A stretch of DNA of 64,000 bases from NCBI GenBank assembly GCA_963724065.1, contig CAVRTB010000006.1, forward strand, positions 133,105 to 197,104, in the 5' to 3' direction. The DNA comes from an uncultured Solirubrobacterales bacterium (GTDB lineage Bacteria; Actinomycetota; Thermoleophilia; Solirubrobacterales; JBBDJG01). Both the position numbers and the translations under genes were made by a program. Below are positions 6,150 through 43,233 of this stretch, piece by piece. The notes below the pieces were generated by a model that was not told where the DNA came from, made no database searches, and saw nothing but the letters and a program-made list of their open reading frames with translations. Within the stretch, counting starts at the first letter, position 1. Each line of letters starts with the position of its first letter.

Positions 6150-8192
6150 TTAGGGGGTCGTGCCCCGGCCGGTGGCGCCCGAGCTCTGGGAGCCGCCCGT
6201 CGTCCCGCCCGTCGTTCCGCCCGTGGTCCCGCTGCCCGTGCTTCCTCTCGACCCCGTGCTGCCGGGCGCGGCGCCGGTCGCTCCGGTGCCACCCGCGGCT
6301 CCGGTGGAGCCGGTGCCGCCCGCGGTCGCGCCGGCCGGCGCGCTGCCCGCGCTGCCGTCGCGCTCACCGACGATCACGAGGTTGCCCGGGGAAAGCTCGC
6401 CTTGCAGCGCGCGGACCTCGACCAGCCCCTGTGCCGCGAGGCCGGGCTCGACCGTCACGTACTCGGTGCGGGTGCCCTGGCGCTGCACCTGCACGCGCGA
6501 CTTGCCGTCAGCCCCGACCGACAGGGCGGTGATCGGCACCGAGAGCACCGCCTCCTGCGTGCTCTTGACCGCGATCGTCAGCTTCACCGAGGCGCCCACC
6601 AGCTGGGCCGGCGCGGTCTTGGGCGTGATCGAGAGGTACACGCGGCCCTGCTCGACCTTGTGGGTGCCGGGCGAATCTGCGACTTGGGTGACGACGCCGG
6701 TGGTCTTGATGCCGAGGTCGGGCTCCTCGATGGCCACCGAGGCCCCGGGTCGCACAAGCTTTGCGTCGGCGATCGACAGCGACGAGTCGATCGCGAGGCG
6801 CGAGTTGCTCACGGTCATCACGCGACCGGTGACGGTGTCGCCGCGCCGCACGCGAACGGAGTCGACGCGCAGTGGAAGGGTGTTGAAGAAGAGCACCTCG
6901 TTCGCCGGCACCGAGACCCCGACCTTGCGCGCGAGCCGCCCGACGTCGCGCTGGGCGCTGCGCGCCTCGGCGCCCGCCGCCTGGATGACCAGCTGGTGCA
7001 GCGAATTGTTGCCGGGGGTGCGCAGCAGCTGCAGGCGCTGCGAGGCGAGCGTCACCTGGCGGCGCGCGTTCGGCAGCGACTTCTGGGCCTTGGTGCGGTC
7101 GGCGCGCGCACGCACGACCGAGTCGCGGCCGGCCTCCTGCGTGGCCCTGCTCGAGGAAATCGATGCGTTCAGGTCCGCCTGCGCGACCGTGACGTCGTCG
7201 CCGGCAGCCCGCACCGCGGATTGAAGCGCCGCGCGCTCCGACGGAGAGGTGTCTGGCGGAGCCTCGGCGAGATTGCGCTGAGCCTCGACGAGCGCGTCGG
7301 CCGCCTTGTTGGCGGCTGCGCGCTTCGTTGCCACCTCGGCAGCGGCGACAGCGTTGTCGCGGCGCTCGTTTGCAAGCGCGAGCGACACCGCGCGAGCCTG
7401 CGAGGCAAGCTCGTGCTCCGCGGTGACGATCGCGTCGCGCGCCGTCTGAAGGTCGATCCGCGCCTGTGCGACGTCAGCGGGCGCAGCGCCCTTGGAGGTC
7501 AGCTGCGCCTGGAGGAACGCGTCCCGCGCGGCTGCCGCCGCGGCGCGCGCCGCCCTCAGCTGGTCGAGCTGCGTGTCGGTTGCCCCGAAGGGCGCCCACC
7601 CCGAGCGCTCGTACCAGGACACGACTGCCGAGGCGGTCGCGGCGTCGTAGCGGCCGTCGACGCTCCCGGGCGAAAATCCCATGCGCGCGAGCGCGCTCTC
7701 GAGTTGCCGCACGTCCTGACCGCGGCTTCCCGGGCCGAGGTCACGGTGCGAGGGCTGTGCGCCCCGCAGCACGAAGACGGGCCGGCCGGAGACCGACATC
7801 GCGGTGCTGCCCTCACTGACGCGGGCGCCGCGCTTCGGCCTCGTGGTGACGATGTCGCTGATCGCCCCGCTGCTCGAGCTCGTCTTGATCTCGGAGGCGG
7901 CAAGCACGACCGGCTGCGGCGAGCCGTAGCGGACCGTGCCGCGCACGATCACCTCGCTCGACAGGACCCGGCGCTCGACGGGCACCGTGATCGCGGACGG
8001 GTCCGGCGCAGCCGTCTCGGCCGCCACCTGTGCCGGCGACTTGATCTGCGCGCCGGCGAACCAGGCGCCGCCTGTCAGGGCGACCGCGGACGCGAGACCG
8101 ACGGTCACGGTTCGACTGAGTCTTATCCCGATGCCCATGCCCCTACTACCCGGCCTCCTGTGGCCTCCCCGGCGTCGCTCCATGCGACGCAC
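6150..8192 (-). CDS. HlyD/MFP-type periplasmic adaptor with peptidoglycan-binding domain and Gly/Thr/Ser-rich tail
   Basis: N-terminal TM. PG_binding_1-like segment (GQDVRQLESALARMGFSPGSVDGRYDAATASAVVSWY). Long Ala-rich coiled coil. C-terminal beta-barrel typical of adaptors. The last ~70 aa are a low-complexity GT/GS run. The start could also be the internal ATG at 8138. Confidence 0.8.
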   Translation of the reverse strand: MRRMERRRGGHRRPGSRGMGIGIRLSRTVTVGLASAVALTGGAWFAGAQIKSPAQVAAETAAPDPSAITVPVERRVLSSEVIVRGTVRYGSPQPVVLAASEIKTSSSSGAISDIVTTRPKRGARVSEGSTAMSVSGRPVFVLRGAQPSHRDLGPGSRGQDVRQLESALARMGFSPGSVDGRYDAATASAVVSWYERSGWAPFGATDTQLDQLRAARAAAAAARDAFLQAQLTSKGAAPADVAQARIDLQTARDAIVTAEHELASQARAVSLALANERRDNAVAAAEVATKRAAANKAADALVEAQRNLAEAPPDTSPSERAALQSAVRAAGDDVTVAQADLNASISSSRATQEAGRDSVVRARADRTKAQKSLPNARRQVTLASQRLQLLRTPGNNSLHQLVIQAAGAEARSAQRDVGRLARKVGVSVPANEVLFFNTLPLRVDSVRVRRGDTVTGRVMTVSNSRLAIDSSLSIADAKLVRPGASVAIEEPDLGIKTTGVVTQVADSPGTHKVEQGRVYLSITPKTAPAQLVGASVKLTIAVKSTQEAVLSVPITALSVGADGKSRVQVQRQGTRTEYVTVEPGLAAQGLVEVRALQGELSPGNLVIVGERDGSAGSAPAGATAGGTGSTGAAGGTGATGAAPGSTGSRGSTGSGTTGGTTGGTTGGSQSSGATGRGTTP

Positions 8193-9649: not shown

Positions 9650-9722
9650 GGTAGCGCTCGCGGGACGGCCCCGCGACGCATCGGATCGACCGCGGCGGCT
9701 ACTGACGCCGGCTGGAGCTTCC

Positions 9723-9755
9723 GTCGATTGTGTACCTCCTGGGTACTCAAACGAC
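9723..9755. repeat. REP-like palindromic element, copy A
   Basis: GTCGATTGTGTACC-TCCTG-GGTACTCAAACGAC: 14-bp arms with 2 mismatches. Lies between convergent genes. 28 of 34 positions match the copy at 36623. Confidence 0.6.
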
Positions 9756-9773
9756 CGCGGCGGCCGGAGCTTT

Positions 9774-9808
9774 GGTCGATTGACCCCCTCTATGGGGGTG
9801 AATCGACC
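9774..9808. repeat. REP-like palindromic element, copy B (variant core)
   Basis: GGTCGATTGACCCCC-TCTAT-GGGGGTGAATCGACC: 15-bp arms with 1 mismatch. It has the same outer GTCGATT/AATCGAC arms and the same CGACCGCGG flank as copy A, and is arranged in tandem with it. Confidence 0.55.
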
Positions 9809-9847
9809 GCGGTGGGGGCGCGCATCGGCGCCGGGCGCGCCGAAAGC

Positions 9848-21032: not shown

Positions 21033-21968
21033 ATGAAGCTCGAGGGAATCCACCACGTCACCTGCATCACCGCCGACGCGCCGCGCAACGTCGACTTCTA
21101 CGCGCGCCTGATGGGACTGCGGCTCGTGAAGAAGACCGTCAACCAGGACGATCCGAGCGTCTACCACCTCTTCTACGCGGACGAGCAGGGGAGTCCCGGC
21201 GCGGACCTCACGTTCTTCGAGTTCCCGGGAGTCGCCGTGGGCCGCGCCGGCGACGGGATGGTCCACAGGATCGTGTGGCGCGTCGCCTCCGCGGCCGCGC
21301 TCGACTTCTGGGCCGAGCGGCTCGGCGGCGAGGGGCACGCTACGGAGCGCCTGGGCGACAGGCTGCGCTTCCGCGACTTCGAGAACCTCGAGCACGAGCT
21401 TGCCGTGACCGACTCGCCTGACCCGCCGCTGATCGCCGACCACCCGGAGGTGCCGCGCGATGTCGCGCTCCAGGGGTTCGACGGGGTGCGCGCATACGGG
21501 TCCCAGCCCGAGCGCAGCCGCCAGGTGCTCGAGCAGGCACTCGCGTTCGAGGCGGGCGGGGACGGGTGGGAGGCGCGCGGCGAGCGCCGCGGCGGCCTCT
21601 ATGCCTACGACGCGCCCCCCTCCCAGGGCGGCCTTCAGGGAGCGGGCACCGTGCACCACGTCGCCTGGGCGTCGCACGACGACGAGCACGAGGCATGGCG
21701 CGAGCGCGTGCTCGAGGCCGCGGCGCGCCCGACGCCGGTGATCGACCGCTTCTGGTTCAGGTCGATCTACTTCAGGGAGCCGAGCGGCGTGCTGTTCGAG
21801 CTTGCGACGTTCAGCCCGGGCTTCGCAGCGGACGAGGATCCTGAGCACCTCGGCGAGAGCCTCGTGCTGCCGCCGTTCCTCGAGGCGCGCCGCGCGGAGA
21901 TCGAGGAGCGCCTCACGCCGATCGTGAACCCGCGCACGGCCGGCGCCGCGGGACGGCGCGACGCGTGA
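21033..21968 (+). CDS. ring-cleaving dioxygenase / VOC (glyoxalase) family, two-domain
   Basis: MKLEGIHHVTCITADAPRNVDFYARLMGLRLVKKTVNQDDPSVYHLFYAD.. and a second VOC module (GTVHHVAW..SIYFREPSGVLFE). Confidence 0.85.
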   Translation: MKLEGIHHVTCITADAPRNVDFYARLMGLRLVKKTVNQDDPSVYHLFYADEQGSPGADLTFFEFPGVAVGRAGDGMVHRIVWRVASAAALDFWAERLGGEGHATERLGDRLRFRDFENLEHELAVTDSPDPPLIADHPEVPRDVALQGFDGVRAYGSQPERSRQVLEQALAFEAGGDGWEARGERRGGLYAYDAPPSQGGLQGAGTVHHVAWASHDDEHEAWRERVLEAAARPTPVIDRFWFRSIYFREPSGVLFELATFSPGFAADEDPEHLGESLVLPPFLEARRAEIEERLTPIVNPRTAGAAGRRDA

Positions 21969-22198
21969 CCGGGACCGGCTCGGAGCCGGAGGAGTACGGG
22001 CTCTGTCTGCGCGAGGCCCACAGGTTCCTGGACCTCGGGTGTGAGTCGCTGCGCGGCGGGTGGCCCGACATCGAAGGGCTCGCGGCCGACGCAGGGCTCG
22101 CCGTACGCCGGCTCGAGTGGCCGCACCCACGCCAGACGTGGTTCGCGGCGGCGCTCGACGACGCCACGGCAGACCGTGCCGTGGCAAGTCTTGACTAG
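21965..22198 (+). CDS. hypothetical protein (77 aa)
   Basis: GTGA overlap with the previous stop. GC-rich third codon positions. No recognisable domain. Its TAG stop is at the MITE boundary. Confidence 0.4.
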   Translation: MTGTGSEPEEYGLCLREAHRFLDLGCESLRGGWPDIEGLAADAGLAVRRLEWPHPRQTWFAAALDDATADRAVASLD

Positions 22199-22526
22199 TT
22201 GTAGTTCCCACGCACGTTGTTCCTGTTGCGGGCGTGGCGCTGGTGGCGGGTTCGAAAACCGGGGTGGGTAAGGGCAGGACCCGGGACGAGCAAGGACTCG
22301 CGCGACGCGTCGTTGCGACGCAAAGCGCACGCGTCGGTCGTGAAAGAGCCGTCTGCGCGTGATTCGTATGAGGTGCGTCGATCGGCAGGCGCCGGTCGAC
22401 GAACTTTCCCTCCTGGCGTCCACTTTCACGCATGGCGGGAGGGAAAGTTCGGCGGCCGATGCGCGACCCCGAGGGCTTTCGCCCGTGACCGCGGCCCTTT
22501 CGCTGAAGTCTCGTGGGAACTACAGC
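22198..22526 (+). mobile_element. MITE-like non-autonomous element, short copy (329 bp)
   Basis: Termini GTTGTAGTTCCCACG ... CGTGGGAACTACAGC, flanked by TA on each side (target reads C-TA-G). About 95% or better identical to the reverse complement of 42540..42994, with several 1-2-nt indels. Internal perfect 14-bp stem at 22400-22413 / 22438-22451. Confidence 0.8.
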
Positions 22527-22542
22527 TAGGCGTCAGTGCCGG

Positions 22543-24147
22543 TCAGCCGCCGAGCGTGAGGACCAGCTCGGGCCGGCGGGTCGCATCGCTGTACTCGCGC
22601 GACCTGAAGTCGATGCCGTCGCTCGACGTGGTGGCAAGCACGAAGCCGTAGGTGCCGTCTCCGGAGAGCGCCGGCGTGACGTCGTACTCGACCCATGCCG
22701 AGCTTGCGATGCGCGCCTTGTCGTCCATCGCCGCGCTCGTGCGCGCCGGGCGGTTTTGCCACGTGAGGGCGGTCTCGGCCCCCGTCCAGCTCGTGGCGTA
22801 GGCGGCGGGCCCGTTCGCGGTGTCGCTTGCCGTGCGCAACCGCAGCCGCGCGCTCGTGACCGGCCGTGTGATGCCCTGCACCTCGAAGCGCAGGTAGCTC
22901 TCGACGTCCGGGTCGCCGGCGCCGTCCGTGCGCAGTGTCGCGGAGGTCCCGTGGTTGGTGCTCGCGTTGGCCTCCTCGACGCGCGCGTCGGCCTGGGGGC
23001 GGAAGGTCAGCGTGACCGGCGGCGCGGGCATCGTGACCGTCACGTTCTCGCTCGGCGGCGACTCGTTCCCGCCGCCGTCGACGGCGCGCACCTGGTAGTC
23101 GTGCGTCGTGCCCGCACGCGCGGTCATGTCGGGGTACCCGGTCGCAGGCCCGACCGTGCCGACCATGAAGCCGTCCCTGTAGATCCGGTAGCCCGTGACC
23201 GCGGTGTCGTCCGTCGCGGCGGCCCAGGCGAGGTTCACCTGGGTGGCGCCGGTCGCGACCGCGGTCAGGCCGGTCGGAGCGCCCGGCGGGGTGGTGTCCG
23301 CGCTCGTGCCCGTCGTGTTCCACGGCTCGGGCCCGACCCCGGCGCAAGCGGAGCCGTTGTAGCGCGTGACGCTCGCGCCGGCGCTCGAGAGCCTGATGCG
23401 AACGGATGCCCAGTTGTTGCCCTCGGCCGTGCCGGCGCCGTTGCCCTCGCGGATCCTGTTGCCCGGGTCGGCGACCGAGATCAGGCAGTAGTCGCCGTCG
23501 CCGACGTACTTCCCGTTCGGGTTGAGCACCAGCCACTGGTCGGCGAGCGTGTAGGGGTACTCGTCGCTCCAGCCGACCGAGATGCCCTGGCGCGGGCCGT
23601 TGCAGTCGCGGTAGTAGGCGCTCGCCGGCGATGCCGGGAGCGCGGAGAAGAACCACTTGCTGTCGATGATGCAGAAGGTGACCTTGAAGCTCGACGCGAC
23701 CACCGCGCCGTCCGACAGGCGCGCCAGCGCGTAGTTCGCGAAGTCCTGGAAGTGAAGGTGGTCGTGCGCCGGGTGGTAGGCGATGCAACCGGTCTGCACC
23801 TCGGAGTAGGCCGTGTCCGTGCCGCGCCGGAAGGCACCGTCCGCGTCGGCGTCTTCGTAGACGCGCTGGTAGGCCGGCTTCTCGGCGGTCTCGACGACAC
23901 CGTCGCCGTCGCAGTCCGATGCGCCGTTCCCGACCAGCTCGAGTGGCCCGGTGCTCGCGTTGCCGACCTCGTTGTCGAAGCGCAGGCGCCGCTCGCCGTT
24001 GCTCGTGGCGATCGAGAGCCGCTCCGGCTCCTTGGTGCGCAGGTCCGGAAGCAGGGGGTGGTCCGCGAGCGCCGGTGCGGCGGCCGCGAGCAGCCAGATG
24101 CACGCGGCAAGCAGCAGCAGGCCCAGGTCATCCGTGACGCGACGCAT
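22543..24147 (-). CDS. secreted lysyl-oxidase-like protein with FN3 and DNRLRE-type C-terminal domains
   Basis: Signal peptide. YHPAHDHLHFQDF aligns to the LOX copper site WHSCHQHYHSMDEF. FKVTFCIIDS aligns to HKASFCLED (LTQ Lys). WSDEY aligns to CYDTY (LTQ Tyr). FN3 segment (PPGAPTGLTAVATGATQVNLAWAAATDDTAVTGYRIY). DNRLRE-like segment (ADARVEEANASTNHG..ESYLRFEV). Confidence 0.8.
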   Translation of the reverse strand: MRRVTDDLGLLLLAACIWLLAAAAPALADHPLLPDLRTKEPERLSIATSNGERRLRFDNEVGNASTGPLELVGNGASDCDGDGVVETAEKPAYQRVYEDADADGAFRRGTDTAYSEVQTGCIAYHPAHDHLHFQDFANYALARLSDGAVVASSFKVTFCIIDSKWFFSALPASPASAYYRDCNGPRQGISVGWSDEYPYTLADQWLVLNPNGKYVGDGDYCLISVADPGNRIREGNGAGTAEGNNWASVRIRLSSAGASVTRYNGSACAGVGPEPWNTTGTSADTTPPGAPTGLTAVATGATQVNLAWAAATDDTAVTGYRIYRDGFMVGTVGPATGYPDMTARAGTTHDYQVRAVDGGGNESPPSENVTVTMPAPPVTLTFRPQADARVEEANASTNHGTSATLRTDGAGDPDVESYLRFEVQGITRPVTSARLRLRTASDTANGPAAYATSWTGAETALTWQNRPARTSAAMDDKARIASSAWVEYDVTPALSGDGTYGFVLATTSSDGIDFRSREYSDATRRPELVLTLGG

Positions 24148-34771: not shown

Positions 34772-36404
34772 CTACTTGGTCCAGCTGGTCGACCAGCGGC
34801 TGCGGCTCCAGCGGCTGCGGCTCCAGCGCGAGCGAGCCGGGTCGACCGATTCGTCGGCCGTCGGGGAGCAGTCGCAGGTGTAGACGCCGCTCCAGCGCGA
34901 GCGGCTCCACCGCGACCGGCTCCAGCGTGAGCGCGTGTAGTCGATCGCGCCGGTCTGCGGGTCGACGAGCGAGCTGGGCTCGATCCCCACGTTCGCGCCG
35001 AGCGCGTTCGAGTTCGAGAGGCCCAGGGCCTGCACGAGCTGGACCTCGCGACCGCCGTTCTGGGTCCTGCGCTGGGTACGGACGAGCGCGTCCTTGACCT
35101 CGTCGGGAGTCAGCCCGGGGTTTCGCTCGAGCATGTTCGCGACCGCGCCCGCGACCATCGGCGCGGACATCGAGGTGCCGCCGGCACGGATGTACTCACC
35201 GGACACGATGCAGGACTCGCACATGTCGGCGAAGTCGCTCCCGGGAGAGAGCAGGGAGACGATCTTCGACCCGGGTGCGGTCACCTCGGGCTTGCGGAAG
35301 CCGTCCTGCGTGACGCCGCGGCTCGACCACTCGGTGAGCGTGTCGTCGCGGACCTTGTCGGTTCCCTGGTCGGTGACCGCGCCGACCGAGATCACGAAGG
35401 GATCGTTGCCGGGCGCGTAGGACACGGCACCTGGGCCGGCGCCCCGGTTGCCGGCTGCGGCGACCACCACGATCCCGCTGAACCAGGCTGCCTCGGCCGC
35501 GGCGTCGAGTGGGTCGGTCCGGTACGACTCGGCCTGTGTCGACTCCAGCGACAGGTTGATCACGCGGATGTTGAAGGCGTCCTTGTGGTCGATCGCGAAC
35601 TGGATGCCGTAGATCACGTCGAGCACCGTGGTCGCGCCCTCGTCGTCGTCGACCTTGACCGAGATCAGGTTTGCGTCCGGCGCGACGCCCACGTACTCGC
35701 CGCGCCGGGCGTCGCCGCTGTCACGGTTGCCGCCGTTGCCGGCGATGATGCCGGCGACATGCGTGCCGTGGCCGTAGGTGTCGCGCGGCGTGTTCGCCTC
35801 GGGGTTGGTGACGGCCGTCGCGATCACACGCGAGCCGTGGTCCGTCGAGGACACGCGGAAGTCGGGGAGCGCAGATGCGATGCCGGTGTCGATCACCGCG
35901 ACGCCGACGCCCTTGCCGGTTGCCGGGCGGCCCCACACCTCATCCGCGCGGATCGACTGGTTGTAGGAGGTCTCGAGCTTGCTGGCGTCGACGGACTGAG
36001 CCTTCGTCTGCGCGTTCAGCGACACGGCGTGCACGCCGTCACGAGAGGCGAGGCGCTCGGCCTGGGTTGCGCTGATCGACACGGCAAGCCCGTTGATCAC
36101 GTGCAGGTCACCGGTCACCCGGCCGCCGGACTCGCGCACCAGGGCGCGTGCCTGCGCCGGCTCGACGCCGGGCCGGAACTGCGACGATCGCCTCGACCGC
36201 GCGGCCGGGGCGCTGGGCGGCGAGCTCTGTGAGCGCGGGGCTTGCACCGCCGGGAGTCGTGGCCGTGCCGCTCGTCGAGCCGGTCGTGGCGCCGAGGCCC
36301 GCGAGTGCGATCGAGAGGGAAACAGATGCTGCAAGCAGGGCCGCGGGCCATGTGGCTCGCCGGCTCCAGCAGATGCCCAGCGTGGAAGCGTGATGGAAGT
36401 TCAC
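34772..36404 (-). pseudogene. subtilisin-like S8 protease P1 (signal peptide, I9 propeptide, D/H/S triad, (RSRWS)n tail), frameshifted near the 5' end
   Basis: Catalytic body in ORF 34772..36334 (VAVIDTGI, HGTHVAGI, GTSMSAP). The signal peptide and propeptide start (..WPAALLAASVSLSIALAGLG..AVEAIV) lie in the frame of ORF 36108..36917. An extra C at about 36182 relative to paralog P2 (CTGCGAC vs CTGGAC). The start is GTG 36404 or ATG 36422. Confidence 0.8.
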
Positions 36405-36622
36405 GGGGGGACCAACCTCCATGTCGATCGGAAAAACCCATGGCCCGTGTCCGACCCGAAAGCGGGGAGTTCCGCTGTCTGCCGGGGGCCAACATCCACT
36501 GTGCGCGCCCGTCCCGTCGCCGGCAACCGAACCTGGCCGAACCGGACGCATGTATGAGTTGGGGGAGCGCGCGGCCGGTGACGTGCGCGCCCCTTGTCGG
36601 CACGCCTCGACCCGACGCTGGC

Positions 36623-36655
36623 GTCGATTTACTACCTCCTGGGTTGTCAATCGAC
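36623..36655. repeat. REP-like palindromic element, copy C
   Basis: GTCGATTTACTACC-TCCTG-GGTTGTCAATCGAC, the same family as 9723..9755 (shared CGTCGATT....ACCTCCTGGGT....AA.CGAC). Confidence 0.6.
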
Positions 36656-36676
36656 ACCGGCGGCGCTCCAGAACGA

Positions 36677-36732: not shown

Positions 36733-38358
36733 CTACTTGGTCCAGCTGGTCGACCACCGGCTGCGGCTCCAGCGGGAGCGGGCCGGGTCGATGCTGCCGC
36801 TCGTGGTCTTCGAGCAGTCGCAGCTCCAACGCGAGCGGGCCCAGGTGGCGCCCATCGTGCTCGGAGCGGTGCTCCAGCGGGAGCGGCTCCAGCGCGAGCG
36901 GGTGTAGTCGATCGCACCCGTCGCCGGGTCGACCACGGTGTTCGGCGCGATGCCGGCGTTGGGGTTGCTGCCGGCGGTCGCGTTCACGGCCGGGATTGCG
37001 AACGCCTCCCTGCCGGCGCCGACGTTGCGCGCCGTGTCGATCAGGATGCCCTTCACCTGGTCGGGGGTCAGGCCGGGACGCTCCTCGAGCATGTTCGCGA
37101 CGAGGCCCGCGACCATCGGCGCCGACATCGAGGTGCCGCCCGCGCGGATGTACTGGCCGCTGACGATGCAGCTCGGGCACATCGAGGCGAAGGAGCTCTT
37201 GGGCGAGAGCGCCGAGACGATGTGCGCGCCCGGTGCGACGATCTCCGGCTTGGAGAAGCCGTCCTGCGTGCTGCCCCGGCTCGACCAGTCGGCGAGCAGG
37301 TCGTCGTCCGGCGACTTCGTGGCGCGGTCGTCGACCGCCCCGACCGAGATCACGAACGGGTCGTTGCCGGGCGCGTAACTGACCGCGTCGGAGTCGCTCC
37401 CGCGGTTGCCCGCGGCGGCTACCACGACGATGCCGCTGAACCATGCCGCCTCGACCGCGGCGTCGAGCGGGTCCGTCTTGTAGGACTCGGCGACGCTCGA
37501 CTCGAGCGACAGGTTGACGACGCGGATGTTGTAGTCGGACTTGAAGTCGATCGCGAACTGGAGGCCGTAGATCGCGTCCAGGATCGTCGCCTCACCCTTC
37601 TCGTCCGAGGCCTTGATCGAGATCAGGTTCGCGTCGGGCGCGACGCCGATGTAGTCGCCTCGCAGCGAGTCCGAGGACGAGCGGTTGTTGCCGTTGCCGG
37701 CGATGATGCCCGCCACGTGCGTGCCGTGGCCATAGGTGTCATTCGCGGTCGTCGCGTACGGGTTGGTGACCGCGGACGCGATCACGCGGGAGGCGGTACC
37801 CGACTGCGAGACCTTGAAGTCGGCCAGGTTGCCGGCGATGCCGGTGTCGATCACCGCGACGCCGACGCCCTTGCCGGTTGCCGGGTCGTCCCACACCTTG
37901 TCGGACCTGAGCGACGCGTTGTACGAGGTCACGAGCTGGCTCGCGTCGATCGACTGTGGCTTGGCTGACGCGTTCATGGAAACCGCGTGGACGCCCTCGA
38001 GGCCTGCGAGTCGCTCCGCCTCGGCGGCCGTCATGCTCGCGGCGAGGCCGTTGATCACGTGCAGATCACCGGTCACCCGTCCGCCGGACTGGCGCACGAG
38101 CGCGCGAGCCGCGGACGGCTCGATCCCGTTGTCGAACTGGACGATCGCCTCGACCGATGCGCCGGGGCGCTTCGCGGCGAGTTCGATGAGCGCGGGGCTT
38201 GCCCCACCCGGCGTCGCGGCGGTGCCGCTCTGCGAGACGGCGGGAGAGCCGATGCTCGCAAGCGCGAGGGACAGGGACACTGCGGCGGTGAGCAGGGCGG
38301 CCGAGCACATGGCCCAGAAGCCCCAGCGGATGCGCAGCGGGGGGGCAGAGTAGGTCAC
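36733..38358 (-). CDS. subtilisin-like S8 protease P2 (signal peptide, I9 propeptide, catalytic domain, (RSRWS)n tail)
   Basis: ORF 36733..38463. The likely start is GTG 38358 (GGAGG 11 nt upstream, the same arrangement as in P1), giving VTYSAPPLRIRWGFWAMCSAALLTAAVSLSLALA. VAVIDTGI, HGTHVAGI, GTSMSAP. Confidence 0.85.
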   Translation of the reverse strand: MTYSAPPLRIRWGFWAMCSAALLTAAVSLSLALASIGSPAVSQSGTAATPGGASPALIELAAKRPGASVEAIVQFDNGIEPSAARALVRQSGGRVTGDLHVINGLAASMTAAEAERLAGLEGVHAVSMNASAKPQSIDASQLVTSYNASLRSDKVWDDPATGKGVGVAVIDTGIAGNLADFKVSQSGTASRVIASAVTNPYATTANDTYGHGTHVAGIIAGNGNNRSSSDSLRGDYIGVAPDANLISIKASDEKGEATILDAIYGLQFAIDFKSDYNIRVVNLSLESSVAESYKTDPLDAAVEAAWFSGIVVVAAAGNRGSDSDAVSYAPGNDPFVISVGAVDDRATKSPDDDLLADWSSRGSTQDGFSKPEIVAPGAHIVSALSPKSSFASMCPSCIVSGQYIRAGGTSMSAPMVAGLVANMLEERPGLTPDQVKGILIDTARNVGAGREAFAIPAVNATAGSNPNAGIAPNTVVDPATGAIDYTRSRWSRSRWSTAPSTMGATWARSRWSCDCSKTTSGSIDPARSRWSRSRWSTSWTK

Positions 38359-38593
38359 GACGGGATCAACCTCCGTGTCGATCTCGGGGGGCGGGGGGCG
38401 GAAAGCAGATGGCCCGTCCTGACCTGGCAGCGTCCTTGCTGCGTCGTCGGCGGGGGGCCGCAATCCAACATCGGGGAAGCGCGCGGCCCCGGCAACTCTT
38501 TGTGGCGCTTTTGGACCTTTGTACTAAGGTCGCGGCCCCAATCGACGCGCTTGCGCGTTTAGTCCCGCCGCGAGGCGGGCATCACGGCGTCCC

Positions 38594-41518: not shown

Positions 41519-42540
41519 CGGCGATGCAAGCCCTCACCTGGACGGGCGACGGCCTCGAGCGGCGGGCGGTCGAGGCCGCCTCGGTCGAGGGTGACGGTGA
41601 GGCGCTGGTCCGCCCGGTCGCCGTTGCAACGTGCGACCTCGACGCGTTGATCGTCGCGGGGGACACGCCCTTCCCCGCGCCGATCGCGCTCGGTCACGAA
41701 TGCGTGGCGGAGGTGGTCGAGGCTGGGGATGCCGTCCGGTCGGTCGAGCCGGGGACGCTCGTTTCGGTTCCCTTCCAGGTCTCGTGCGGCAAGTGCGACC
41801 GCTGCCGCGCCGAGCGCACCGCCAACTGCAGTGCGGTCCCGCCCTTCTCGATGTACGGGTTCGGGCAGACGGGGTCCGACTGGGGCGGCTTCCTGTCCGA
41901 CTCGGTGCGCGTCCCGTTCGCAGACCACATGCTCGTGCCGCTCCCGGCCGGCGTCGACCCGCTTGCAGTCGCGAGCGCTTCGGACAACATCCCGGACGGG
42001 TGGCGCGCGGTCGGCCCGCAACTCGAGCGCGACCCCGGCTCCGCGGTGCTCGTGGTGGGCGGCGCGGGCCCAGGATCGATCGGGCTCTACGCGGCGGCGA
42101 TCGCAGTCGCCCTCGGGTCCGAGCGCGTCGTGTACGTCGATGCGGACGAAGGCAGGCGCACGACCGCCGAGGCCTTCGGCGCGCAGGCGCGCGACCGCGA
42201 CGGCGAGCGGCCGGGGCGGTTCCTCGTGACGGTCGACGCGAGCGGGGATCCCGAAGGGCTCGCGCTCGCGCTCTCGTGCACCGACTTCGACGGGACCTGC
42301 ACGAGCACCGCGATGTATTTCGGGGAGCAGCCACCGATGCCGCTCCTCGAGATGTACATGCGCAACACGACGTTCGTGACCGGCCGCGTGCACGCCCGTG
42401 CGGCGATCCCGAAGGTGCTCGGACTCGCCGCGCGCGGGCGTTTCCACCCCGAGCAGGTCACGAGCAAGGTTGTCCCGTGGGACGACGCCGCGGACGCCCT
42501 GCTCGAGCGCGACTGGGTGAAGCTCGTGTTCGAGCGGTAG
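41515..42540 (+). CDS. zinc-dependent alcohol dehydrogenase (MDR) family oxidoreductase
   Basis: GHECVAEVVEAG. Structural zinc cluster CGKCDRCRAERTANC. GGAGPGSIGL Rossmann motif. The TAG stop abuts the MITE copy. Confidence 0.85.
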   Translation: MTAMQALTWTGDGLERRAVEAASVEGDGEALVRPVAVATCDLDALIVAGDTPFPAPIALGHECVAEVVEAGDAVRSVEPGTLVSVPFQVSCGKCDRCRAERTANCSAVPPFSMYGFGQTGSDWGGFLSDSVRVPFADHMLVPLPAGVDPLAVASASDNIPDGWRAVGPQLERDPGSAVLVVGGAGPGSIGLYAAAIAVALGSERVVYVDADEGRRTTAEAFGAQARDRDGERPGRFLVTVDASGDPEGLALALSCTDFDGTCTSTAMYFGEQPPMPLLEMYMRNTTFVTGRVHARAAIPKVLGLAARGRFHPEQVTSKVVPWDDAADALLERDWVKLVFER

Positions 42541-42994
42541 CTGTAGCTCCCAACCACATCGGTCAGGCCGCGGAATGCGCCTCGCGGGCGCAAGCTCGGG
42601 CGTGGAAAACCGGGTGGGTAAGGGAAGACGGATCGTCGGCGTCTGCGACCGCGCTGAGCGGCGCAGTGTCACGAGACTTCAGCGAAAGGTCGCGGTCACG
42701 GGCGAAAGCCCTCCGGGTCGCGCATCGGCCGCCGAACTTTCCCTCCCGCCATGCGTGAAAGTGGACGCCAGGAGGGAAAGTTCGTCGACCGGCGCCTGCC
42801 GATCGACGCACCTCATGCGAATCACGCGCAGACGGCTCTTTCACGAGCGACGCGTGCGCTTTGCGTCGCAAACGACGCGTCGCGCGAGTCCTTGCTCGTC
42901 CCGGGTCCTGCCCTTCTACCCAACCCGGTTTTCGAACCCGCCGCCAGCGCCACGCCCGCAACAGGAACAACGTGGCGTGGGAACTACGGCTGTC
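42540..42994 (-). mobile_element. MITE-like non-autonomous element, long copy (455 bp), inverted relative to 22198..22526
   Basis: TA-flanked. Both arms carry GTAG(T/C)TCCCA..CCAC at the tip and GAAAACCGGGTGGGTAAGGG about 60 nt in, forming an imperfect ~80-bp terminal inverted repeat. The internal core is near-identical to the short copy. Confidence 0.8.
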
Positions 42995-43233
42995 TAGTCC
43001 AGCTTGTTGCGCGTCTTGCGACCGGCGGAGCCGCTCTTGCGGACCGCCTTGCGCGAAGTGCCGAAGGGCTTCTGGAACCAGCGGCCGAGTGGTCCGGGTG
43101 CCTTGCCGGCGGCGCGCTGGCCGACTCCCAGTGGTGCGTCGCCGCCGCGTTCGAGATGCCTCGAGAGGCGCGGGGCGAGGATCGCCACAAGGAAGAGCAA
43201 TACGCAGAAGACAATGATTCCGGCAATCAGCAT
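42994..43233 (-). CDS. small membrane protein (79 aa) with basic tail
   Basis: MLIAGIIVFCVLLFLVAILAP is a TM helix, followed by a Lys/Arg/Gly-rich tail. The TAG stop abuts the MITE end. Confidence 0.5.
   Translation of the reverse strand: MLIAGIIVFCVLLFLVAILAPRLSRHLERGGDAPLGVGQRAAGKAPGPLGRWFQKPFGTSRKAVRKSGSAGRKTRNKLD

Follow-up and report, generated by a model that had tools for sequence, protein, structure and literature searches.

A candidate family of miniature inverted-repeat transposable elements with TA target duplication in uncultured Solirubrobacterales

Organization of the element and its surroundings

The DNA analyzed here is a 64,000-nt stretch of contig CAVRTB010000006.1 from an uncultured Solirubrobacterales bacterium (assembly GCA_963724065.1), referred to below as the window. 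It contains two copies of a repeated element that is described here as a probable miniature inverted-repeat transposable element (MITE). The longer one, copy A (455 bp), is located between the convergent genes of a Zn-dependent alcohol dehydrogenase (ADH)-like protein and a DUF6411 protein; the shorter one, copy B (329 bp), has the opposite orientation. The coordinates of both copies and of their parts are listed in Table 1. The two copies and their TA flanks were found at the positions and in the orientations given by a first-pass annotation of the window. Their alignment showed 96.6% identity across 319 nt with four indels of 1–2 nt, in agreement with the core identity of at least 95% and the several small indels described in that annotation. 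The closest relative of each window copy was the other window copy.

The full-length element is about 455 bp long and is composed of two imperfect inverted-repeat arms of ~85–130 nt and a non-coding core of ~240 nt. Each arm has the inner block GAAAACCGGGTGGGTAAGGG in addition to its tip, G[C/G/T]TGTAGYTCCCAACCACGTTGTTC, which is well conserved. Terminal inverted repeats, made up of the ~27-nt tip and the 21-nt inner block, are thus present in both arms, and the family profile also matches the opposite strand of the full-length copies. In copy A, the arms have the ~27-nt tip in common, as well as the inner block GAAAACCGGG(G)TGGGTAAGGG; copy B terminates in GTTGTAGTTCCCACG and CGTGGGAACTACAGC. 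These termini, the tip and inner blocks, the 14-bp stem with its 24-nt loop, and the second palindrome of the core had been described in the first-pass annotation, and all of them were recovered. The right tip of copy A (42984–42994) reads CTACGGCTGTC; compared with the consensus CTACAGC, it carries a small terminal insertion or duplication of 4 nt, and recognition of this end by the transposase might be impaired.

Table 1. Positions of the two element copies, their structural parts, and the adjoining genes in the window
Feature	Position	Strand	Remarks
ADH-like gene (ADH_N/ADH_zinc_N)	41524..42540	+	TAG formed by target TA and first G of the element; P0007 100% identity, 338 aa
Left TA of duplicated target, copy A	42538..42539	.	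with the element's first G, TAG stop of the ADH-like gene
Copy A, full length	42540..42994	+	G...C between the TAs; homology to seven other copies begins and stops here
Left outer terminal inverted-repeat block GCTGTAGCTCCCAACCACATCGGTCAGG	42540..42567	+	conserved in 7 copies; pairs with 42964-42994
Left-arm segment deleted in copy B	42553..42671	+	~119 nt, CA microhomology; present in L005, L006, L007, L008, L010
Left inner inverted-repeat block GGAAAACCGGGTGGGTAAGGG	42604..42624	+	
Central hairpin	42733..42784	.	14-bp stem 42733-42746/42771-42784; 24-nt loop, GCCATGCGTGAAA, invariant in 9/9 copies
Second hairpin CGTCGA.CGGC...GCCG.TCGACG	42783..42808	.	shares its first two nt with the foot of the central stem
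Most conserved block CGAATCNCGCGCAGANGGCTCTTT	42818..42841	.	invariant in 9/9 copies, including the 71% one
Palindrome CGACGCGT...ACGCGTCG	42848..42882	.	arms 42848-42855/42875-42882; encloses TTTGC/GCAAA mini-hairpin; pairs almost all invariant, covariation uninformative
Right inner inverted-repeat block CCCTTCTACCCAACCCGGTTTTCG	42911..42934	+	
Right outer terminal inverted-repeat block GGAACAACGTGGCGTGGGAACTACGGCTGTC	42964..42994	+	4 extra nt relative to family consensus CTACAGC
DUF6411 gene, 79 aa	42994..43233	-	TAG formed by TA and complement of the element's last C; Pfam match reaches profile end
Right TA of duplicated target, copy A	42995..42996	.	with last C (42994), minus-strand TAG stop of the DUF6411 gene
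TA beside copy B, element's right end	22196..22197	.	with complement of last base, TAG ending ORF 21965-22198
Copy B, deletion derivative, 329 bp	22198..22526	-	retains only ~13 nt of the left arm
TA beside copy B, element's left end	22527..22528	.	15 nt downstream of TGA stop of CBM96/lysyl-oxidase-like gene 22543-24147 (minus)
30-nt family tip TAGCTGTAGYTCCCAACCACGTTGTTCAGG			

Further copies of the family

The first-pass annotation had predicted more copies outside the window, and seven were found in six other assemblies, which gives nine copies in seven assemblies. Owing to the high G+C content of the element, gene callers place spurious open reading frames (ORFs) on it; six of the seven were obtained with these ORFs, used as protein queries, and with a three-sequence profile. 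The ORF queries retrieved proteins P0001–P0006, and each of the source contigs holds one copy of the element. The remaining copy, L010, was found with the invariant block CGAATCNCGCGCAGANGGCTCTTT in a collection of species-representative genomes; its source is a metagenome-assembled genome titled “uncultured Solirubrobacterales bacterium.” The identity to copy A was 97% for copy B, 93% for L006, 91% for L008, 87% for L005, 86% for both L007 and L010, 76% for L004, and 71% for L009. A profile search of 182 kb, covering the window and the fetched loci, revealed exactly these nine copies. Exact 23-mer and 20-mer words from the central stem had no match in the genome collection, the three metagenome matches of the same stem words were fortuitous, with no homology around them, and the invariant block was not matched in viral contigs.

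The flanks of the nine copies were mutually unrelated, since tblastx comparisons returned low-complexity or compositional noise only, and the homology among the copies ended precisely at TA on both sides. The element has therefore moved between loci: vertical inheritance of all copies at orthologous positions is contradicted by the unrelated flanks, as well as by the empty site described below. Orthology of L010 and copy A, whose left flanks both end in ...FER..., was also considered and was rejected because these flanks are unrelated.

The long left arm is carried by six copies; thus, the 455-bp form is ancestral, and copy B is a deletion derivative, as the first-pass annotation had proposed. 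Copy B lost ~119 nt through a deletion between short CA repeats. Other copies are incomplete as well: L008 is truncated on the right side, the left tip of L009 is decayed, and that of L004 is lost at a contig end. The L005 copy has inserted at a TA inside a solo left arm that is diverged and derives from a relative; this nesting and the mutual closeness of the two window copies speak for repeated activity. This solo arm (L005 855–971, minus strand, ~115 nt, tip TAGCCGTAGGTCCTAACCACGTTGTT) continues into sequence unrelated to the family core and may originate from a relative with a different interior; no plausible ORF for a transposase was found beside it on the 1,059-bp contig.

In the long-read assemblies of L006–L009, many genes are represented by adjacent fragments that match the same Pfam family (MreB, RodA, and Obg in L008; HXXSHH in L006). 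Such split genes indicate frameshift errors; therefore, single-base indels in the element copies of these assemblies carry little weight.

Insertion site and target duplication

A search for homologues of the ADH-like gene adjoining copy A yielded three loci, L011, L012, and L013 (85–87% identity); the named homologues of the gene were from Solirubrobacteraceae, which places the window in Solirubrobacterales as well. The three loci share the gene order of the window, namely GGDEF/EAL, a small ORF, ADH, DUF6411, and a gene of 236–238 aa. The DUF6411 gene was called in L011 only and is truncated and uncalled in L012 and L013. In L012 and L013, which are independent assemblies, the junction is free of the element and includes a single TA (...TTCGAGCGC-TA-GTCGATCTT...), whereas the corresponding junction in the window is ...TTCGAGCGG-TA-[G...C]-TA-GTCCAGCTT.... 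In short form, GAGCGC-TA-GTCGATC in the relatives is opposed to GAGCGG-TA-[element]-TA-GTCCAGC in the window. In L011, the junction reads TGA-GGG-TCA and has no TA. When the element and one TA were taken out, the window aligned with L012 across the junction without gaps (84% over 223 nt). This gap-free alignment of the filled and empty sites demonstrates an insertion accompanied by duplication of TA and substantiates the duplication assumed earlier from the flanks. In L012, DUF6411 is broken ~20 codons from its stop and is replaced by unrelated, A+T-richer sequence (L012 3770–3830); thus, this locus has undergone another rearrangement.

The left boundary TA-G[C/G/T]TGTAG and the right boundary CTACNNC-TA were observed in every copy, with TA at 14 of the 14 intact element ends. 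The base preceding the left TA was C in 6/7 copies, and the base following the right TA was G in 4/7 and A in 3/7. These counts define the target as C-TA-R and agree with the IS630/Tc1-mariner type of preference named in the first-pass annotation. The preference of IS630 for TA in CTAG is stated in the title of a 1991 article by Tenzen and Ohtsubo, which is cited in PMC2170065. The C-TA-G target reconstructed earlier for copy A held for the empty site of the relatives, but the flanks of copy A itself give G-TA-G. The tetranucleotides at the left and right ends are GTAG/CTAG in copy A, CTAG/CTAA in both L006 and L010, and CTAG/CTAG in both copy B and L005. Identical 4-bp direct repeats are thus present only in copy B and L005, and among the five copies in which both ends are present, three have unequal tetranucleotides. 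The bases proximal to the element are invariant (G at 7/7 left ends, C at 7/7 right ends). The odd base of an unequal pair is always distal to the element, and CTAA occurs at 3/7 right ends and at none of the left ends.

Stop codons and scarcity of TA

The CTAG of the empty site holds two overlapping stop codons: the top-strand TAG terminates the ADH-like gene, and the bottom-strand TAG terminates the convergent DUF6411 gene. Because G is the first base of the element and C the last, insertion together with the duplicated TA rebuilds TAG as the same codon for both neighbors. The ADH-like protein of the window ends with ...LVFER-stop, and the DUF6411 protein ends with ...NKLD-stop, compared with ...AKID-stop in the relative; both genes are intact through their C-termini. 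These reading frames show that the insertion of copy A was harmless to both neighboring proteins.

The coincidence of element ends with stop codons is thus explained by the G...C ends. Three such coincidences were listed in the first-pass annotation. All three are present, and the ADH-like and DUF6411 genes are real, but the third ORF (21965–22198, 77 aa), which ends on copy B, has no Pfam family support. In addition, the annotated end of an ankyrin gene in L006 (9727–9966) coincides with the left TA and the following G, and rpmA in L008 has its TAG stop at the right end of the element. The ORF ending in ...LLFERTA-stop in L010 probably also terminates on the element stop.

The genome has a G+C content of 70%, and the observed/expected ratio of TA in the window is 0.42. 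CTAG occurs 17 times compared with ~177 expected, which is a ~10-fold depletion, and three of the 17 sites are made by the element ends. About 11 of the 29 other CTAG, CTAA, or TTAG sites are stops of long ORFs with high G+C at third codon positions (GC3), and two of these sites are overlapping convergent stops. Owing to the depletion of TA and CTAG, a large share of the usable targets are TAG or TAA stops; the suggestion that a TA-poor genome offers few targets, stop codons being among them, was therefore correct. At the TTAG sites at 6150 and 57008 of the window, long high-GC3 ORFs end on both strands, so that two convergent stop codons appear to overlap as they do in the empty site of copy A; both sites look like potential landing sites. 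GATC is 3.5-fold over-represented in the window (620 compared with ~177 expected), and its excess together with the depletion of CTAG suggests strong tetranucleotide selection, for example by restriction–modification or methylation.

Coding potential and secondary structure of the core

Public gene callers place ORFs across the element (P0001–P0006), which could be taken to mean that the repeat is a duplicated small protein gene, represented by the MFLLRAWRW... or the MRESGRQEGKF... ORF. The probability of this is negligible. The indels of 1–2 nt shift the frame between copies, and those between copies A and B are already sufficient to refute a conserved protein. The called ORFs differ in strand and frame, the variable core columns are distributed over the codon positions as 40/36/43 without 3-nt periodicity, and the element-spanning ORFs gave no matches in Pfam. 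The MRESG... ORF, which starts in the hairpin loop, was rejected as coding by the same frame shifts and the missing periodicity, and the first-pass annotation was right in treating the MFLLRAWRW ORFs as non-coding. The possibility of a known RNA family, raised at the same time, was examined with Rfam: no family reached the gathering thresholds in the window or in the seven loci, and a permissive scan of copy A returned only sub-threshold matches of 11–24 bits, compared with gathering scores of 37–168.

The consensus fold of the element contains 98 pairs, most of which never vary. In the central stem, changes on both sides were found at 6/14 pairs, in L004, L005, L009, and L010. There, 92% of the cells are paired compared with 32–60% when the 3' partner is slid, and the covariation score of the stem was reached in 0/500 shuffles. 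The second hairpin closes in 8/9 copies with differing sequences (CGCCGATC/GGTCGGCG, CGCCG/CGGCG, CGCTG/CAGCG). Thus, with copies that are 71–97% identical, the two internal hairpins have been kept through compensatory changes. The arms change in concert as well: CGGCTGG is present in both inner blocks of L007 and of L009, and the tips of L010 read GGTGTAG and CTACACC. In the two most diverged copies, the core is conserved better than the left arm. The covarying hairpins, together with the invariant loop and linker, indicate a constraint in the proliferating lineage beyond the ends that a transposase would bind.

Neither strand was favored by this structure. Folding was equally stable on both strands (z -6.35 and -6.95), C.A was about as frequent as G.U among the imperfect pairs of the central stem, and neither strand of the second hairpin was consistently more stable; the G.U and C.A counts and the folding energies thus gave no consistent strand preference. 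A scan of the element for sigma-70-like promoters and canonical terminators found none.

Comparison with known elements

Every testable feature of a MITE was found in the family, namely unrelated insertion sites, terminal inverted repeats, target duplication, and small non-coding size; a search of the literature revealed no described MITEs in Thermoleophilia. The terminal inverted repeats and the 2-bp TA duplication are shared with IS630, ISY100, and the MITEs mobilized by such elements, for example, RUP of Streptococcus pneumoniae (IS630-Spn1), and the IS630-mobilized MITEs likewise lack coding capacity and are scattered over unrelated loci. TA is both the insertion site and the duplicated sequence of IS630-family elements, and IS630 itself has a preference for TA inside 5'-CTAG-3' that is similar to the one observed here (PMC2170065; PMC2229807). 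However, the present element, at ~455 bp, exceeds both RUP (107 bp) and typical bacterial MITEs (<200 bp; PMC2229807) two- to fourfold in length, and it differs from RUP and the other described bacterial MITEs in the two-block arms of ~85–130 nt, the large, conserved, covarying core, and the Thermoleophilia host.

The Correia/NEMIS elements of Neisseria have terminal TA, inverted repeats, a gene-adjacent intergenic location, and deletion variants in common with the present family. They occur as variants of 107 and 155 bp, and their transcripts fold into long stem-loops that affect neighboring mRNAs (PMC2229807). However, there is no sequence similarity between the two families, and Correia elements (100–155 bp) form a single hairpin from their ends, unlike the multi-hairpin compensatory core observed here. 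MITEPsy1 of Pseudomonas syringae, an IS5-type element, targets CTAG or YTAA (PMC3189936), and these tetranucleotides also flank the present family, but it is 100 bp long, has IS5-like ends (GGAAGGT...), and generates a 4-nt duplication, whereas the tetranucleotides are unequal in 3/5 copies here. The plant Stowaway MITEs, derived from Tc1/mariner elements, are similar in their TA duplication, terminal inverted repeats, and strong folding, and they likewise prefer genic 3' regions and originate by internal deletion; however, they are eukaryotic and unrelated in sequence.

Other repeats and paralogues in the window

Three hairpin repeats of ~48 nt were observed at 9717–9764, 9769–9816, and 36617–36664. 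They have a conserved lower stem, GTCGATTG...CAATCGAC, and compensatory differences in the upper stem (GTACC/GGTAC, CCCCC/GGGGG, CTACC/GGTTG), with z values of -2.2 to -4.3. All of them are located in 3' intergenic positions, after a Vgb-lyase/NHL gene and between two subtilase genes, and they may represent a REP-like (repetitive extragenic palindromic) repeat or a shared terminator. The ORFs 34772–36400 and 36733–38523 (minus strand) are tandem paralogues with ~77–79% DNA identity. The ORF 34772–36400 matches Peptidase_S8 (subtilase); this match was established for the first tandem ORF only.

Origin and possible function of the element

Taken together, the data are best explained by a family of non-autonomous cut-and-paste MITEs of uncultured Solirubrobacterales (Actinomycetota, Thermoleophilia) with TA duplication of the IS630/Tc1-mariner type, to which we assign a probability of about 0.8. 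Several results weigh against this explanation. None of the 37 proteins of the window has a transposase domain, in line with the first-pass annotation, in which no transposase with matching ends was seen, and no autonomous element or transposase with matching ends was found in the ~118 kb of fetched loci or in their gene lists. In particular, no DDE (DD[E/D]) transposase with paired HTH domains is encoded near any copy. A distant blastn search with the whole element found no similar DNA in a plasmid collection. The known copies number only nine, six of which are close relatives, and several source assemblies consist of error-prone long-read contigs, where some 1-nt indels may be artefacts. Finally, because TA is palindromic, CTAG is the target, and the element has G...C ends, the empty site by itself fits a 2-bp TA or a 4-bp CTAG duplication equally well, and the preference for the former is based on the three copies with unequal tetranucleotides. 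The same ambiguity gives room to a MITE of an IS5-like family (IS5, IS701, or PIF/Harbinger) that duplicates 4 bp of CTAG or YTAR, the element proper being CTGTAG...CTACNN. CTAG on both sides of copy B and L005, the CTAG of the empty site, and the 4-nt duplication of MITEPsy1 at CTAG or YTAA (PMC3189936) would all fit such an origin. We nevertheless regard it as improbable: the tetranucleotides of copy A, L006, and L010 differ always in the element-distal base, the proximal G and C never vary, and CTAA is confined to right ends. The unequal tetranucleotides and the fixed G...C ends therefore favor IS630/Tc1-mariner over IS5. The earlier IS630 assignment is accordingly retained as far as the TA duplication and the C-TA-R target are concerned; with the autonomous partner not found, the target and the end architecture indicate that the cognate transposase is most probably of the IS630/Tc1-mariner type.

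The conservation of the core allows two further explanations. The core may be a functional RNA in the 3' untranslated regions of the neighbors or in a transcript of its own, acting as a 3'-end stabilizer, a processing site, or a bidirectional insulator, which would be compatible with a MITE. This is possible, albeit on balance rather unlikely. The two hairpins with compensatory changes, the loop and linker that remain invariant even in the 71% copy, and the core, which in the two most diverged copies is better conserved than the left arm, are consistent with it, as are the location of the copies at the 3' ends of genes, in most cases with convergent genes on both sides, the GGGC-GAAA-GCCC tetraloop-like hairpin on the plus strand, and the stem-loops by which other bacterial MITE transcripts regulate adjacent mRNAs (PMC2229807). 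However, the z values of the two strands reveal no asymmetry, C.A is about as common as G.U, no promoter, terminator, or Rfam match was found, and most predicted helices are invariant. Alternatively, the hairpins could be kept at the DNA level, by template switching in quasi-palindromes or because folded DNA aids the pairing of the ends for the transposase. The equal complementarity of the two strands, the mismatches of both C.A and G.U type, the extension of one long imperfect palindrome over the whole element, and the concerted arm changes in L007, L009, and L010 point in this direction. We consider this explanation unlikely, as it does not account for a 24-nt loop and a 24-nt linker that are invariant while the stems vary. 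To our knowledge, no requirement for a folded core is known for IS630-family transposition. The in vitro reaction of ISY100 needs only transposase and terminal repeats (PMC2170065).

According to the MITE explanation, a transposase supplied in trans would bind the arms and excise the element, which would then be inserted at TA, preferentially at C-TA-R, with duplication of TA. The scarcity of TA and CTAG would concentrate the insertions on TAG and TAA stops, including the CTAG shared by convergent genes. With its G...C ends, the element would restore TA followed by G on the left and C followed by TA on the right; hence, a gene arriving from either side would keep its TAG. One may speculate further that the MITE is adapted to landing harmlessly on stop codons and delivers a functional RNA or DNA core module to gene ends, a proposal that we consider doubtful. 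If it were true, a core module serving as a bidirectional 3'-end insulator, an mRNA stabilizer, or a processing site would explain why the interior is conserved above one of the arms.

The family would represent a new group of mobile elements in Solirubrobacterales, a soil clade that is abundant but has hardly been cultured, and it explains a group of hypothetical proteins that are spurious entries of public gene catalogues. It also illustrates cleanly how both neighboring reading frames can be left intact through the combination of target preference, genome composition, and end sequence. In addition, the compensatory evolution of the hairpins and the invariant loops raise the question of which parts of a MITE other than its ends are under selection.

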